Source: an uncultured Candidatus Bathyarchaeia archaeon
GTDB lineage: Archaea; Thermoproteota; Bathyarchaeia; TCS64
Assembly: GCA_964628765.1 (NCBI GenBank)
Contig: CAZVMT010000002.1
Location: 1 to 42,327 of the forward strand
Length of the DNA: 42,327 nt
Direction of reading: 5' to 3'
The notes below the pieces were generated by a model that did no database searches, had not been told where the DNA came from, and saw nothing but the letters and a program-made list of their open reading frames with translations. Positions 9,308 to 16,723 of this stretch are shown one piece after another. A program made the position numbers and the translations under genes. The number at the start of each line of letters is the position of its first letter. Positions within the stretch are counted from its first letter, which is position 1.

Positions 9308-9502
9308 TTAACCTCCCTTATTTTCATAATCAATCTCCCACCACAACACATTACATAGCGGTACATACCATTCATTATCAATTCCCTTACACCTAACAAA
9401 TAACATAGGTATACCATTTTTCTTAACAATTTCAGGTTCATCTATTACGCTACAAAATTCCTCTGGTTCATCTACATCACGATAACTTATTTTTATATTC
9501 AT
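9308..9502 (-). CDS. hypothetical protein
   Basis: 64-aa ORF with AAAGGAGG upstream. Confidence 0.5.
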   Translation of the reverse strand: MNIKISYRDVDEPEEFCSVIDEPEIVKKNGIPMLFVRCKGIDNEWYVPLCNVLWWEIDYENKGG

Positions 9503-9523
9503 AATTAACCTCCTTTATTTTGA

Positions 9524-9756
9524 CCACTCCACCTATCTTGGTTGTTTCCCTTCACCAAAGTTCCAGTAACAACTAACATGTATCTTCAAGAAGAGCCCAG
9601 GGGCTCTTATCAGCAGAGTGGAACGTTTAAGAACTAATTGCCTGTTTTCCCACCCTCACAGGCTCGTCTGCTATAGTCAGACACCCTACCACATCTAATA
9701 AATACAAGCACAGGCTCATACTCTTGTGTGGTATTACTTATACCAATTACTATAGA
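9524..9756 (-). ncRNA. structured noncoding segment between the tRNA-Thr and the next gene
   Basis: On the minus strand: GGTAT/ATACC, GTCTG/CAGAC, GCCTGT/ACAGGC (loop GAGGGTGGGAAA), AAGAGCC/GGCTCTT and GTTGTT/AACAAC hairpins. CCACTC/GAGTGG (9616-9621 with 9524-9529) closes a 3-way junction. Confidence 0.4.
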
Positions 9757-9830
9757 TGGAGCTGACAGTTTGAATTGAACAAACATCTACTGTTTACAAG
9801 ACAGCAGCTCTGCCGTTGAGCTATGCCAGC
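9757..9830 (-). tRNA. tRNA-Thr (anticodon UGU) with encoded CCA
   Basis: Folded by hand. Acceptor GCTGGCA/TGTCAGC, D arm GCTC-AACGGCA-GAGC, anticodon arm GCTGT-CTTGTAA-ACAGT, T arm GTTTG-TTCAATT-CAAAC. U8, A14, GG, U33 and TTCAA are present, with discriminator T then CCA. Confidence 0.9.
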
Positions 9831-9834
9831 AATA

Positions 9835-9916
9835 TGGTGGAGGTGGTGACTTTCGCCACGTTTCCGAGAATAGGGTAGCAACGTAGTTGTGCCTACTTCG
9901 GTCGATTTACACCCCC
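9835..9916 (-). ncRNA. tRNA-like element (7-bp acceptor-type stem ending ACCA) lacking canonical D/T arms
   Basis: GGGGGTG...CACCTCC-ACCA closing stem. Inside are a long irregular hairpin and a GTGGC-GAAA-GTCAC (GNRA) hairpin. It lies 4 nt upstream of the tRNA-Thr 5' end. Confidence 0.35.
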
Positions 9917-9920
9917 ATAT

Positions 9921-10745
9921 CTAAACGCTTGCGTGTATATCTTTGCCCTTCTCTGGTTCACCATTTAATCTGACCCTTGTAGATCCCGTTGCTGGTTTTA
10001 TATACATTCCTTTTAAACTATAACTTGCATATCCCATGTAACTACCTGTTGCTACAAAACATTCCTGTTGTTCTATTAATTTTTTATTGTGCATATCGGG
10101 ATATATATACTTTTCTTTTAATGCTATTTTGCTATGAACATGAGCGCCAAAATATATATCAGCTAAGGCCATACTCTTCAATGACATAATCCGATTTACT
10201 TTTCCACCCTGTGTCCTGCCTCCGCCTATCACATGATGAAGAAAAGCAGAATAACAAATGGGTCGTCTCTTATCCATTCTCTTATTCCCCCGGCTTTCAC
10301 CTACATTTAAAAATAAATAAGCGCACCAATTAGGGAAATATTCTATATCTAAAAACTTTGATAAATCCTGTATAGGACTATCACCAACTGCTTTTAGTAT
10401 GCGTTCTTCGTGGTTACCCTCAAAGCAACCTAATATCTTATCTTTTATCGGTCTTAATTCTTCAGTAATAAAGTCTTTTGCTTTTGCTAAATTAAATTGG
10501 TTATCGTGTACATTGCCTATTGATGTTTTTATGGTAGCGTCAAAAACATCTCCCATTAAAAATGTGTACGCTTCAGGTGTGTCTTTTATCCACTTAACCA
10601 TATCTCTAAATTTTTTAGTTGCATATACTCCTTCGGGTAATTCTCCTCCTAAACCTGATTTATCCCCACAATGAAAATCACCAATGGGTATAAAATAGAT
10701 GTGGTCAAATTCTTGTGGGAATACAATACTTTTAGTCTTTATCAA
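9921..10745 (-). CDS. calcineurin-like metallophosphoesterase
   Basis: IGDFHCG (GDxH), MGDVFDA (GDxxD), EGNHEE (GNHE) and GAHVH motifs, in order. Confidence 0.8.
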   Translation of the reverse strand: MIKTKSIVFPQEFDHIYFIPIGDFHCGDKSGLGGELPEGVYATKKFRDMVKWIKDTPEAYTFLMGDVFDATIKTSIGNVHDNQFNLAKAKDFITEELRPIKDKILGCFEGNHEERILKAVGDSPIQDLSKFLDIEYFPNWCAYLFLNVGESRGNKRMDKRRPICYSAFLHHVIGGGRTQGGKVNRIMSLKSMALADIYFGAHVHSKIALKEKYIYPDMHNKKLIEQQECFVATGSYMGYASYSLKGMYIKPATGSTRVRLNGEPEKGKDIHASV

Positions 10746-14219: not shown

Positions 14220-16134
14220 GTAATTTCTTAGTCGGTGCAGATTTATACTTGAAGAAATTCTTCTTAAATATATTGTTCTTTATTTCTATTTTTTTCTTAG
14301 TAATTGACTTCTGTTTATCTTCACTTGATAATGCTTTATATTTTGAGTTAGTCTGCATAAGTTTAAACCATAACTTAAATTTAGTGTTAAATTCTTCATT
14401 TAATGCCTTAAATCTTTTCTCCCCAACCTTCTCCCTAAACTGTTGTAATACTACACCGGGATTTTGTGACCAGTCTGTATTCATCGAATAAGTATTTGTG
14501 CTTATGCCCAATCCTTCAGCTATCATTGAAAGCAATATATCAGCTGAATCCGGGTCATCTTTTAATTCTTTATAATTGGTAAATATAATTGGTACAAATA
14601 AATCTTTTACTGTGCTTCCTGCTGTTGGTTTCTTGCCTTCCCAATCTTTACCTATGGCAAGATTTTTTATTACTGAATATAATGGCGCTAATTTATTCTC
14701 AAAGAAGTCATAAGTAACCGTTAACCTATCAGCAGCCCCGTATTCACCTGTCCCTAATTGTTTTACTAACCCAGTTGTACTGCTCTTTGTAGAATTTGTT
14801 ATTAATCTTGAAGCCAATGTCACTACCGAAGCCATACCACCCGATACATCAAATCTGGTACTACCTATCTTTATTTTGCCAAAATCAGCACTGCGAGGGT
14901 CCCAGTCAACACTTCCGGGACTTGCTGCACCTGCGATAACAAGTATAGCGGCTGTCCCACTTACTATTTTTACCAGATTAGCCGCTGCCTGTTTTTTGGC
15001 AAAAGGAGTTACTTTTGGATCTCCCATGTGTGCAGTTAAAACATCAATATGACTTTTAAACAATCTTGGTGCAAAGAATACATTATTAATTACATTACCA
15101 ACAGGTTCTAATGCGCCCAATGCCCCTCTACCAGTTAATGAATTAACTAATTTACCTATACTCTCAAGTTGTGCTTTATCATCTATATCAATATCAGACC
15201 TTTCGGCAATTTCCATATATTTATCAAATACATCAGCCCTTTGTTTATATATAAATCCAGTATAAGCGTCCTGACTTGCTTTATAAAATCTACCAAAAAG
15301 AGGTATCTTTTCAGGAAGCCCACTTGGAAACTCTTCTTCAATGGTCGCTACTGCTAATCGGGCTTTCTTCATTCTGTCATAGTTCGGTCTTGATACAATA
15401 TCAGCTTTTACTTCGTCTATTATATTTTTACCGCCAATAGTTCTGGCTATATCGCCAAATGATTTTAGAGCATTCTTGGTCCAAATGCCGGGGTTAGTCC
15501 AAAGTGTTTTCCAACCCTGTCTAAATATAGCACTATCATCCATAGAAGCCTTTAATGATCTTGCTATACCACCTATATTAACTACACCCTTCACCCATTG
15601 AGTAGGTTTAAGCTGTTCGCCTACTGTTAATTTTTTGGCATTTTCTTTTAAATTACTTACATAATTGCCGAAATCTACCGCCGCCCTGCCATATTCCAAC
15701 CTATCCCCGCCATTATCCCTTGCCTCTTTCTTCTCCGCTGTTATCTTTGCCAGTTCAGCTATCTTATTCGCCTGTTCAATAGTCACCTTTGTTTTTAGTT
15801 TATGAGCCACCAAATCCTCTAAAAATGCCTTCTCGCTTGTAGGATTTAATATTTCGGTCATCTTGTTAACTCGTGATAAAATATCCCTTTGTGCTTCAGG
15901 CTTCATTCCTGAAACGGTTTTTGCCCAGGTGATCATTCCCCTCTGTTGGTTTTTTAATAATAACTTACTCTCAAATAATGAATTGGTATGTTTTGCGTGT
16001 ATTTCTCCCATGAAGGTCTGGAAGAAAGTCCGCCTTCCTTCGGATGACATCTCGGCAAGGTTGCCAGGATTGATACTTCCGTCTTTTAATCCTTGTAAAA
16101 ACTTATTCGCTAAGTTGGAAGGAAGGCAATACAT
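14209..16134 (-). CDS. large virion (presumed internal/ejection) protein
   Basis: 641-aa ORF with AAGGAG 8 nt upstream of ATG 16134. It has a hydrophobic segment (AAILVIAGAA) and lies between the tail proteins and the fibre. Confidence 0.55.
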   Translation of the reverse strand: MYCLPSNLANKFLQGLKDGSINPGNLAEMSSEGRRTFFQTFMGEIHAKHTNSLFESKLLLKNQQRGMITWAKTVSGMKPEAQRDILSRVNKMTEILNPTSEKAFLEDLVAHKLKTKVTIEQANKIAELAKITAEKKEARDNGGDRLEYGRAAVDFGNYVSNLKENAKKLTVGEQLKPTQWVKGVVNIGGIARSLKASMDDSAIFRQGWKTLWTNPGIWTKNALKSFGDIARTIGGKNIIDEVKADIVSRPNYDRMKKARLAVATIEEEFPSGLPEKIPLFGRFYKASQDAYTGFIYKQRADVFDKYMEIAERSDIDIDDKAQLESIGKLVNSLTGRGALGALEPVGNVINNVFFAPRLFKSHIDVLTAHMGDPKVTPFAKKQAAANLVKIVSGTAAILVIAGAASPGSVDWDPRSADFGKIKIGSTRFDVSGGMASVVTLASRLITNSTKSSTTGLVKQLGTGEYGAADRLTVTYDFFENKLAPLYSVIKNLAIGKDWEGKKPTAGSTVKDLFVPIIFTNYKELKDDPDSADILLSMIAEGLGISTNTYSMNTDWSQNPGVVLQQFREKVGEKRFKALNEEFNTKFKLWFKLMQTNSKYKALSSEDKQKSITKKKIEIKNNIFKKNFFKYKSAPTKKLPTL

Positions 16135-16723
16135 TTTTTAATCTCCTTCTATATTTACTATGACATTCTTCACATAAAGTAATTCCATTATTAATATTAA
16201 AAAGTTCTTCACATTGAAGAGCTTCTTCTAATGTAGTTATTTCATATTTTTGTATAATGGAAGAGAAACCTTTTATATGATGAGCATTTAACTTTCCACC
16301 AATTTGTCCACAATCTTGACAGGTGAAATTATCTCTTGTGAAAATATCAGAAATCCATTGTCTATTTTTAATATTTCCACGAACTTGTGATTGAAGAGGA
16401 GTAATTCCGCCTTGCCAATTAGGTTGTTCTTCTTTTATTCGTCCTTTACATATTCTTGAACAAAATCTTCTTCTTTTAATTTCATTTTTATAAACATAAA
16501 ATTCTCTTCCACATACTTCACAATATTTTTTTATTTTTCCACCATTCCATTGAGGATGTTTTTTCCCTCTGTTTGATTCACTTAACTTTTTCTTTGTTTC
16601 TTCTGATAATTTATACCCTTTACGAATTTCACTTAATTTGTGTTTAAGTTCTTCCGAAAGATGTTTACCTTTATTCCAAGGGATATGTCCAACGGCAAGT
16701 TTATTACCTTTTCTAAATGGCAT
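16103..16723 (-). CDS. HNH homing endonuclease with NUMOD3-like repeats
   Basis: GHIPWNKGKHLSEELKHKLS and KGYKLSEETKKKLS (NUMOD3-like), then CQDCG...LNAHHIKGF...NGITLCEECH (HNH). Confidence 0.85.
   Translation of the reverse strand: MPFRKGNKLAVGHIPWNKGKHLSEELKHKLSEIRKGYKLSEETKKKLSESNRGKKHPQWNGGKIKKYCEVCGREFYVYKNEIKRRRFCSRICKGRIKEEQPNWQGGITPLQSQVRGNIKNRQWISDIFTRDNFTCQDCGQIGGKLNAHHIKGFSSIIQKYEITTLEEALQCEELFNINNGITLCEECHSKYRRRLKNVLPSFQLSE

Follow-up and report, generated by a model that had tools for sequence, protein, structure and literature searches.

A probable miniature tmRNA reduced to the tRNA-like domain and lacking the T loop, located beside a tRNA-Thr gene

An 82-nt element ending in ACCA, situated between an exonuclease gene and a tRNA-Thr gene of the DNA studied here (42,327 nucleotides in total, referred to below as the window), is most likely a tmRNA that has been reduced to its tRNA-like domain (TLD). 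On the basis of sequence comparison, it appears to belong, as a divergent copy, to a family of TLD-only miniature tmRNAs of phages that contain neither pseudoknots nor a tag reading frame, and it is a rare variant with a GNRA tetraloop in place of the T loop and no Gs in the D-analog. We consider it rather probable that this mini-tmRNA competes with the host tmRNA for SmpB. The features of the locus, all of which are encoded on the minus strand, are listed in the order of transcription:

9921..10745 (-), upstream gene for a metallophosphoesterase-type DNA repair exonuclease (phrog_7339), synteny anchor
9835..9916 (-), probable TLD-only mini-tmRNA, T-loop-less variant ("class B"); basis: fold, family model R1, syntenic homologs and class-B homologs
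9910-9916 (-), 5' strand of P1 of the element, GGGGGUG
9902-9909 (-), D-analog of the element, UAAAUCGA
9864-9901 (-), P2 hairpin of the element
9860-9863 (-), linker AAAC of the element
9846-9859 (-), T-stem analog of the element, GUGGC-GAAA-GUCAC, with the GNRA loop at 9851-9854
9839-9845 (-), 3' strand of P1 of the element, CACCUCC, giving G3:U70
9835-9838 (-), encoded ACCA end of the element
9831..9834 (-), spacer of 4 nt (UAUU) that separates the mini-tmRNA, ending in ACCA, from G1 of tRNA-Thr; basis: sequence
9757..9830 (-), tRNA-Thr(UGU) with encoded CCA; ARAGORN, Rfam tRNA 64.9 bits
9632..9756 (-), noncoding block with three hairpins, ~90% identical to positions 2234-2358 of relative L006
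9524..9621 (-), element of stems and a junction, immediately before the ribosome-binding site; MFE fold, L306 homolog
9308..9502 (-), downstream ORF of 64 aa with the SD AAGGAGG at 9509-9515, synteny anchor

The initial annotation had placed a tRNA-Thr(UGU) at 9757-9830 and, four nucleotides away, an ACCA-ended element composed of an acceptor-like stem, an irregular hairpin and a GNRA hairpin. Both ARAGORN and Rfam recover the tRNA, the sequence bears out the element and its spacer, and the fold described is that of minimum free energy (-28.3 kcal/mol), represents 66% of the ensemble and has a z-score of -2.6, with equal stability reached by 3 of 200 shuffled sequences. The 7-bp acceptor (GGGGGUG/CACCUCC) contains the wobble pair G3:U70 and is followed by the A73 discriminator and by CCA; stacked under it, the 5-bp stem of the T arm (GUGGC/GUCAC) is kept, and the helix P2 leaves the junction between the D-analog and this arm. 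The 7-nt UUCRANY T loop is absent from the element, where the predicted fold has GAAA instead and where the loop positions are deleted in the R1 alignment, and the D-analog contains UCGA(C) without GG and measures 8 nt rather than 11-13. From the D-analog to the linker there are only 38 nt, and none of the components of an mRNA-like domain (resume codon, tag ORF, stop codon, pseudoknots) was encountered in the element, for which ARAGORN reports neither a tmRNA nor a tag. Its G1 starts 4 nt past the stop codon of the exonuclease gene.

Using the neighbouring exonuclease gene, we collected relatives of the locus and then compared the slot occupied by the element. In these exonuclease-linked relatives the same slot carries genes of 77-125 nt, of which Rfam aligns only tmRNA positions 1-18 and 345-374, deleting ~326 positions of the model. 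The syntenic relatives score 59.1 (L004), 49.2 (L002), 47.1 (L013), 44.2 (L005) and 42.4 bits (L011) against the Rfam tmRNA model, the gathering score of which is 47, and L012, which shares the T-loop-less form of the window, scores 18.4 bits (E 0.0014); the 82-nt element itself gives no match to this model (RF00023) even at E<=10. The slot, which follows the stop codon of the exonuclease either directly or with one small ORF in between, is common to the window and to undoubted members of the family (L002, L004, L005, L010, L011, L013, L014, L019 and L028-L030). The exonuclease of L002 is 95% identical to that of the window, and both have the same 14 nt, AUAUGGGGGUGUAA, where the element starts.

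Scanned with a sequence pattern, IMG/VR gave at least 120 contigs, and all but four (L065, L097, L145 and L161) of the 121 matches listed are Y-shaped TLD-like genes of 67-92 nt, as called by a filter and by inspection by eye; more than 115 IMG/VR contigs carry such similar 67-92-nt genes, with strong covariation. The homology search and covariation analysis proposed in the initial annotation gave a clear result: in an alignment of 51 diverse members, in which the search pattern had left the helix P2 unconstrained, P2 covaries at 7 of 7 pairs, the proportion of paired cells is 95.7% versus 72% in shuffles, and the covariation score is 0.626 versus 0.153, a value attained by none of 500 shuffles. 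The tertiary pair 19:56 also covaries in class A, from G:C to A:U. Many class-A P2 loops begin with a UAA or UGA that precedes a small hairpin.

A family model (R1), derived from these IMG/VR sequences and built without the sequence of the window or close relatives of its element, has as its top match in the whole 42-kb window exactly 9835-9916 (28.3 bits, E 1.7e-4), and it also recovers the published gene of mycobacteriophage DS6A (JN698994, 28478-28560; 59.8 bits). In a control for R1, 98 chance matches in GC-rich bacterial DNA, all chosen in advance to have the same termini and TCGA, scored mostly 14-30 and up to 32.6 bits, so that the 28.3 bits of the window come mainly from the framing by acceptor, ACCA and CGA and add little to what the initial annotation had already recognised. 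The proposed homology rests on synteny, on architecture and on a series of intermediate forms (L068, whose loop has 5 nt, L012 and L006). Other searches returned no further copies: BLAST of the locus against GenBank phages and an exact search of IMG/VR for the 82-nt element gave no match, L001, the sole IMG/VR relative of the exonuclease, is without the element, and the exonuclease search of genome contigs found no relatives. With ten concatenated mini-tmRNAs as query, BLAST against cultured phages retrieved only full-length tmRNAs, permuted or tagged. In bacterial genomes the pattern scan gave mostly chance matches in GC-rich coding DNA (116 of 120) and is therefore uninformative on prophage hosts.

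The T-loop-less class B comprises five related sequences, those of the window, L012, L169, L006 and a partial one, L021. The acceptor stem, with G3:U70, and the ACCA end are identical in all five, each has a GNRA loop (GAAA or GAGA) on a stem of 5-6 bp, and the D-analog contains no G and is 3-4 nt shorter. Compensatory changes are found both in P2 (CCGA/UCGG vs CCAG/CUGG) and in the T-analog (GUGGC/GUCAC vs ACGCUU/AAGCGU vs GUGGGG/CCCCAC), which we take as a sign of selection on the variant of the window; L012, L169 and L006 fold like its element, with z-scores from -2.6 to -4.1 within the class. All five sequences with loops shorter than 7 nt (5/5) have a G-less, shortened D-analog; a crude Fisher test across the family detected no link between loss of GG and loss of the canonical T loop (p = 1). 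Broader class-B pattern searches returned only L169 or chance matches, and additional relatives from ENA and Logan assemblies yielded no new class-B sequence, L296 and L297 being the same as L006.

Compared with bacterial tmRNA (RF00023), the acceptor of the window, GGGGGUG/CACCUCC-ACCA, is close to the consensus GGGGguG...CaCCUCCACCA, and G3:U70, UCGA, the junction helix P2 and a 5-bp stem on the acceptor are shared, whereas ~326 of the 374 model positions, corresponding to the four pseudoknots, the resume codon and the tag ORF, are missing, as is the T loop. The closest known counterpart is DS6A, the sequence of which is little more than a TLD according to the passages on Mao et al. 2009 in two later papers of the same group (PMC4131195; PMC11915505), through which that study is cited here. 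Like the element, the DS6A gene is phage-encoded, ~80 nt long and free of pseudoknots and tag ORF, with a G3:U70 acceptor, a UCGAC D-analog, a short P2 hairpin and a T-arm stem. By contrast, DS6A has a canonical UUCGAUU T loop, GG in the D-analog and the genomic end ACUA, while the window has a GAAA tetraloop, a G-less D-analog shorter by 3-4 nt and an encoded ACCA, and its element abuts a tRNA gene. The element is better grouped with the TLD-only tmRNAs that those papers already report for DS6A than regarded as the new class once suggested for it.

Reduction to a tag-less, tRNA-like part is also known from jakobid and oomycete mitochondrial tmRNA (RF02544) and from plastid forms of ~65 bp (PMC11915505; PMC3985003); unlike the window's element, these organellar tmRNAs are vertically inherited, rely on a nucleus-encoded SmpB partner and are in some cases in two pieces, and the Rfam mt-tmRNA model matches neither the window nor the relatives. 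Full-length phage tmRNAs (the mycobacteriophage Bxz1 group, Streptomyces phages, cyanophages, Caulobacter phages) are likewise phage-borne ssrA genes, often beside tRNA genes, but they have a tag ORF (ANSKFAFALAA in Streptomyces phages) and a host-type architecture, the tmRNA of cyanophages and of CcrColossus being permuted and in two pieces.

From the layout of the sequence, the mini-tmRNA would share a transcript with the exonuclease gene that precedes it and the tRNA-Thr that follows. RNase P would cut at G1 of the mini-tmRNA and at the 5' end of tRNA-Thr, and 3' exonucleases would remove the UAUU spacer as far as the encoded ACCA; the release by RNase P with a near-CCA end that had been predicted for the element is borne out as regards the arrangement, with only four extra 3' nucleotides to remove, and the processing itself stays a prediction. 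Since the acceptor has G3:U70 and A73, the RNA could be charged by the host alanyl-tRNA synthetase (AlaRS), of which G3:U70 is the determinant (PMC3985003). The TLD is bound by SmpB, with which a 59-nt TLD fragment co-crystallises (PMC3985003), and no SmpB homolog was found in the window, so that host SmpB would be needed. According to the relevant passages of PMC4131195, a TLD-only molecule modelled on the DS6A gene inhibits E. coli tmRNA, perhaps by titration of SmpB; by analogy, the mini-tmRNA would bind host SmpB in competition with host tmRNA, and phage-made proteins would undergo less degradation tagging. In class B the elbow is dismantled, with GNRA in place of the 7-nt T loop and a short, G-less D-analog, so that the variant of the window may be mainly a decoy for SmpB or AlaRS rather than a full ribosomal substrate. 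Lacking the elbow kept by all other tmRNAs, class B may fail on the ribosome or not bind SmpB.

How phages handle host trans-translation is poorly known. Bacteria rescue their ribosomes mainly through trans-translation by tmRNA-SmpB; in the literature that we read, only DS6A is named as a TLD-only phage tmRNA, and the viral search of the 2025 tmRNA database paper was confined to RefSeq viruses. The more than 115 uncultivated phage contigs recovered with a single narrow pattern, and showing clear covariation, would make the TLD-only tmRNA a common phage tool, the genes of which standard annotation (ARAGORN, Rfam at the gathering score) misses. Class B can be seen as a natural dissection, in which acceptor stem, G3:U70, CCA, UCGA and P2 are kept and the T loop is swapped for GNRA, and this pattern of retention points to the parts that matter for the phage function. 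We offer as a tentative proposal that class B is a functionally distinct, elbow-free alanine-acceptor RNA, which keeps the AlaRS identity set and CCA and acts off the ribosome as a decoy of SmpB and/or AlaRS or in some undescribed way, and, separately, that TLD-only tmRNAs are a widespread phage counter to host trans-translation, in hundreds of lineages, and not an oddity of DS6A.

Tag-less ribosome rescue would be a different, and in our view rather unlikely, role: the Ala-charged mini-tmRNA, with host SmpB and EF-Tu, would enter stalled ribosomes, accept the nascent chain and trigger release of the broken mRNA, thereby freeing phage proteins from processed or cleaved mRNAs without a degradation tag. 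As the mini-tmRNA has no reading frame, the peptidyl-RNA would need another resolution, by drop-off with Pth, by ArfB or through further rounds. The family does keep what charging and EF-Tu require (G3:U70, A73, CCA and the 12-bp stack of acceptor and T stem), and class A keeps, to judge from the 19:56 covariation, a tRNA-like elbow that a pure SmpB sponge would not obviously need; moreover, mRNA is released upon translocation of TLD-SmpB (PMC3985003), and mitochondrial tmRNAs without a CDS are found together with SmpB and are believed to assist in dealing with incomplete mRNAs (PMC11915505). However, the experiment related in the passages of PMC4131195 on the DS6A-like molecule is one of tmRNA inhibition, independent of chargeability, the absence of the elbow argues against full ribosomal function of the window's form, and inspection of the P2 loops for a hidden short tag ORF revealed no stop codon in a consistent frame. 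That tmRNA-related function has been lost altogether in the lineage of the window seems less credible still; the element would then be an RNase P substrate-like helix serving as a processing or stability module, which marks where the exonuclease mRNA ends and the tRNA transcript begins, or a relic near loss. Such a loss of function would suit the disappearance of the T loop and of the Gs of the D-analog, the start of the element 4 nt after a stop codon and the high plasticity of the slot, which in relatives is filled by class A, class B or homing-endonuclease ORFs or else is empty, but five diverged class-B sequences keep the acceptor, G3:U70, ACCA, the GNRA loop and compensatory stems, and a processing site alone needs neither A73-CCA nor G3:U70.

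Derivation from a decayed tRNA gene, for instance a former tRNA-Ala, or from an attP remnant of the host ssrA 3' end, is very unlikely and largely refuted. A G3:U70 acceptor is common to tRNA-Ala, phage contigs L122 and L165 contain genuine tRNA-Ala genes of identical acceptor sequence, and phages that integrate into tmRNA genes carry the tmRNA 3' end (PMC11590407). Against both origins stand the UCGA D-analog and the P2 arm, which are tmRNA features, the conservation of structure with compensatory changes and the relatives that match tmRNA; no tRNA model matches the element, neither in ARAGORN nor in Rfam (RF00005) even at E<=10, and the degenerate tRNA contemplated in the initial annotation can be set aside, while the tRNA mimic also mentioned there agrees with a conserved, tRNA-like, ACCA-ended element. 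An attP fragment is further contradicted by the presence of both the 5' and the 3' strand, paired, and by a non-exhaustive scan of the ORFs, in which no integrase was found. We give almost no credence to the whole 418 nt being one large, ornate, tRNA-containing RNA like GOLLD or ROOL. Several MFE hairpins and the compensatory changes of two sub-blocks speak for it, but Rfam gives no GOLLD or ROOL match in the locus at the gathering threshold or at E<=10, the fold is unremarkable for the 254 nt downstream of the tRNA (z = -0.04) and for the 418 nt as a whole (z = -0.93), and each module has different relatives, L039 being an "empty site" where both flanking genes are present and all the RNA modules are missing. 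This mosaic distribution refutes the single ornate RNA, and by comparison with these relatives the 418-nt locus looks like a mosaic of independently exchanged modules.

The structured character attributed to the entire locus is not confirmed for the 418 nt or the 254 nt downstream as such, but may hold for sub-blocks 9632-9756 and 9524-9621; as the two sub-blocks show compensatory changes in different relatives, some local structure downstream of the tRNA, in separate modules, is probably real. The tRNA-Thr is an insertion relative to L006, in which the downstream block directly follows ACCA. Within the block 9632-9756, of which no homolog beyond L006 was found and the stability of which is not significant (z = -0.9 and -1.6), the hairpin GUCUG/CAGAC is AGCCG/CGGCU in L006, that is, three double compensatory changes. 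The CCACUC/GAGUGG helix noted earlier is present in the MFE fold. A hammerhead-like reading of CUGAUAA...GAAA in 9524-9621 was discarded, as the core G8 is an A and Rfam gives no match, and the 64-aa ORF that follows has no relatives in IMG/VR. The 9524-9621 element is closed by the helix CCACUCUGC/GGUGGAGUGG and contains the inner hairpin AAGAGCC-CCUG-GGCUCUU, together with a further arm of ~47 nt seen only in the window; in its homolog, L306 1540-1605, a U-A pair of the closing helix is replaced by C-G and a C-G pair of the hairpin by A-U.

All genes in the window, a segment of phage genome, are on the minus strand; the ORFs scanned include those for a terminase, a portal, a capsid, an endolysin, two exonucleases, a DnaD-like protein, RusA and a methylase, and no integrase was found among them. 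Between an exonuclease gene and a 64-aa ORF lie 418 noncoding bases, and the locus is composed as follows:

9921-10745, minus strand: metallophosphoesterase-type exonuclease gene, upstream neighbour of the 418-nt stretch
9835-9916, minus strand: 82-nt element, four bases upstream of tRNA-Thr
9757-9830, minus strand: tRNA-Thr(UGU), CCA encoded, ARAGORN and Rfam agreeing
9632-9756, minus strand: noncoding block of 125 nt, homolog at 2234-2358 of the related contig L006
9524-9621, minus strand: stem-within-stem or junction element, homolog only at 1540-1605 of the related contig L306
9308-9502, minus strand: 64-aa ORF, downstream neighbour of the 418-nt stretch

The sequence places the start of the element 4 nt past the exonuclease stop codon and its end 4 nt before tRNA-Thr, and shows that its acceptor stem is of the AlaRS type and its CCA encoded. 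The initial observation of a canonical tRNA-Thr(UGU) and an adjoining element is real: ARAGORN and Rfam both call the tRNA, and the fold described for the element was reproduced exactly; it dominates, with 66% of the ensemble, a free energy of -28.3 kcal/mol and z = -2.6. Downstream of tRNA-Thr, the 254 nt are no stabler than shuffled sequence (z = -0.04), and the 418 nt as a whole give z = -0.93. Besides tRNA-Thr, Rfam finds nothing in the locus, either at gathering threshold or at E<=10, so tmRNA, a second tRNA and the large phage RNAs GOLLD and ROOL, with which a comparison had been suggested, are excluded by those models.

The locus has no match among GenBank phages. Using the neighbouring exonuclease gene as query, we recovered 41 metagenomic loci, many of which carry a gene of 77-125 nt a few bases past the exonuclease stop, or one small ORF further, that starts with GGGGG(U/C)G and ends with (C/U)CUCCACCA. 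Rfam places these genes on the bacterial tmRNA model RF00023 (gathering score 47), at positions 1-18 and 345-374 only, which are the acceptor stem, D-analog and T arm, about 326 positions of the model being swapped for roughly 34 nt; the scores are 59.1 bits for L004, 49.2 for L002, 47.1 for L013, 44.2 for L005, 42.4 for L011 and 18.4 (E 0.0014) for L012, which shares 75% identity with the element in the window. The L002 exonuclease is 95% identical to that of the window, and the first 14 bases of the element, AUAUGGGGGUGUAA, are common to both, after which L002 reads GGUUUCGA, a canonical T arm GGGUUCGAUUCCC and then tRNA-His. These comparisons indicate that the window's element sits in the slot of a miniature tmRNA made only of the tRNA-like domain (TLD).

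Scanning IMG/VR with the pattern GGGGGYG-N(3-9)-TCGA-N(38-68)-CRCCTCCACCA gave at least 120 contigs, evidence, as a by-product, that TLD-only tmRNA is widespread among phages that have not been cultivated. Y-shaped genes of 67-92 nt, as assigned by filter and by eye, make up all of the 121 matches listed except four (L065, L097, L145, L161). An alignment was made of 51 diverse members among the matches listed, excluding the window and its close relatives. In this alignment the junction hairpin P2, whose pairs the pattern leaves unconstrained, shows double compensatory changes at 7/7 pairs; overall 95.7% of cells are paired, against 72% when shuffled and 48-56% with partners slid, and the covariation score of 0.626 (0.153 in shuffles) was matched by 0/500 shuffles. 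Pattern and filter themselves partly account for the invariant acceptor stem and perfect T stem. Among the matches listed, the tertiary pair between D-analog 19 and T-loop 56 covaries as in tRNA (GG with NC in 48/49 sequences, GA with UU in 12/17), so these RNAs retain a tRNA-like elbow. Most of 58 contigs checked have no tRNA gene beside the mini-tmRNA; about one in ten does.

Hudson, Lau and Williams list "Mycobacterium phage DS6A (TLD only)" (PMC4131195), where a similar molecule is reported to inhibit E. coli tmRNA, perhaps through titration of SmpB and whether or not it can be charged. DS6A is also given as TLD-only by Nawrocki, Petrov and Williams, whose survey draws its viruses from RefSeq only and describes CDS-less tmRNA forms in mitochondria and two plastids (PMC11915505). 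The covariance model R1, built from the 51 members, matches the DS6A gene (JN698994, 28478-28560) with 59.8 bits, linking the metagenomic family with the published example; in the GenBank record this gene is unannotated, in a gap between gp33 and gp34.

Across the 42-kb window the best R1 match is exactly 9835-9916 (28.3 bits, E 1.7e-4) and the second best is tRNA-Thr (12 bits). Bacterial control loci, picked from 596 Gb solely for sharing the termini and TCGA, are almost all GC-rich coding DNA and score up to 32.6 bits, so the 28.3 bits mainly reflect the acceptor stem, ACCA and CGA, features already seen in the first reading. The element is nevertheless very probably homologous to the mini-tmRNA family because four things combine: the acceptor/ACCA/CGA framing, which is unlikely to occur in 42 kb; a leader sequence and genomic slot common to element and family; the same three helices, with a stack of 7-bp acceptor and 5-bp T stem plus the P2 arm; and the intermediates L068 (5-nt loop), L006 (39.4 bits with R1) and L012 (32.1 bits, also matching Rfam tmRNA). 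The tRNA mimic proposed initially was right in spirit, its specific identity being, on these comparisons, a phage tmRNA of the TLD-only kind, for which one example from a phage has been published.

What is new in the window is a T-loop-less variant, class B, as distinct from class A with the usual T loop. Class B comprises five related sequences, the window, L012, L169, L006 (identical to L296 and L297) and the truncated L021, in which the 7-nt T loop has given way to a GNRA tetraloop (GAAA or GAGA) carried by a stem of 5-6 bp, and the D-analog has no G and 8-9 nt instead of 11-13. Both partners of the elbow interaction are gone together; a family-wide association between loss of GG and loss of the T loop was tested and was not significant, so co-loss is claimed only for these five short-loop sequences. 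The acceptor stem GGGGGUG/CACCUCC with G3:U70 and ACCA is identical in 5/5, whereas P2 (CCGA/UCGG in the window, CCAG/CUGG in L012 and L169) and the T-analog (GUGGC/GUCAC, ACGCUU/AAGCGU, GUGGGG/CCCCAC) vary with compensation, and each sequence folds to the same Y shape (z from -2.6 to -4.1). This is not the pattern expected of a decaying pseudogene, and it argues against the decayed tRNA considered in the initial annotation. Broader class-B patterns returned only L169 or chance matches, which suggests that the variant is restricted to this phage lineage.

In known tmRNAs the AlaRS determinant is G3:U70, the 5' end is made by RNase P, SmpB binds the TLD and a 59-nt TLD fragment suffices for crystallisation with SmpB (PMC3985003). 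Most likely, the element acts as a charged, SmpB-binding competitor of host tmRNA: it would be co-transcribed with the neighbouring genes, RNase P would cleave its 5' end and that of tRNA-Thr, exonucleases would trim off UAUU, host AlaRS would charge the RNA, and the form bound to host SmpB would compete with host tmRNA, thereby sparing proteins synthesised during infection from ssrA tagging. No SmpB was detectable in the window with an approximate E. coli SmpB sequence as query. The main rival, tag-less rescue on the ribosome, suits class A, whose elbow is intact, and suits the elbow-less form of the window less well. Class B may instead serve only for processing or stability, or have lost its function, but either would leave its strict retention of G3:U70, A73 and CCA unexplained.

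The exonuclease stop codon UAG (9921-9923) lies 4 nt before the predicted RNase P site (window 9917-9923), and processing there would strip the exonuclease mRNA of nearly all its 3' tail past the stop, which recalls the Carsonella smpB/ssrA overlap discussed in PMC4131195.

Rather than the single structured locus first proposed, the 418 nt are several modules stacked together, with histories that differ. In L006 the homolog of the 9632-9756 block directly follows ACCA, so tRNA-Thr is an insertion in the window. Window and L006 agree at about 90% of positions in this block, though their exonucleases are only 78% identical, with three double compensatory changes in one hairpin and other substitutions that fit the structure; it has no Rfam match, no homolog found besides L006 and no significant stability. 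The CCACUC/GAGUGG helix noted initially falls inside the 9524-9621 element, just upstream of the ribosome-binding site of the next gene; compared with L306, both helices show compensatory changes and the window has an extra hairpin arm of about 47 nt. This element could be a processing site or regulatory structure.

An empty site is seen in L039 (547-640), where the same exonuclease gene and 64-aa ORF are separated by a terminator-like hairpin and about 70 nt alone, without mini-tmRNA, tRNA or other modules; in other relatives the site holds homing-endonuclease ORFs or lacks a spacer, and L002 and the window have nearly identical exonucleases yet different mini-tmRNA classes and different tRNAs. 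Judged from these arrangements, the site is a recombination hot spot. Homing-endonuclease-type ORFs in or near the slot, in the window (16103-16723, minus strand, NUMOD3/HNH) and in relatives (HNH, LAGLIDADG; L021 3875-4410, L004 ~1185-1500, L303/L304), are consistent with cassette swapping.

Many class-A P2 loops open on UAA or UGA, with a small GC hairpin two or three bases further on. In the tmRNAs of E. coli and B. subtilis a similar UAR triplet precedes the resume codon by a few bases. The feature in the P2 loops may be a relic or may contact SmpB; no consistent stop-terminated ORF was found after UAA/UGA in these loops (A1 alignment, L043-L162).

L004 (1578-1614, 38.7 bits) and L012 (1657-1692, 32.9 bits) each match the Rfam abiF RNA motif (RF03085, gathering score 37) a few hundred nt beyond the 3' end of the mini-tmRNA, with no match in the window. 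A conserved noncoding stretch following the mini-tmRNA/tRNA-His, ...UUAUCAACYGCCCGUUGAGGGYUUUGGCUAAAGACGGGCU..., is shared by L002 (4195-4380) and L012 (1500-1650) and absent from the window. Full permuted, two-piece tmRNA genes occur in cultured cyanophages and a Caulobacter phage, namely S-CAM1 (L170, NC_020837, ~108.6-108.9 kb), S-SSM7 (L171, NC_015287, ~20.98-21.29 kb) and CcrColossus (L172, NC_019406, ~132.3-132.7 kb), with Rfam scores of 128 and 109 bits for cyano_tmRNA and 84 bits for tmRNA_permuted; in GenBank they are without annotation or under a 'hypothetical protein' CDS. Among the phage contigs, L155 has two clear mini-tmRNA-like copies, L145 and L146 have a more divergent second copy, L010 has a weak second match just upstream of its mini-tmRNA (2026-2089), and L122 carries a true tRNA-Ala alongside a mini-tmRNA.
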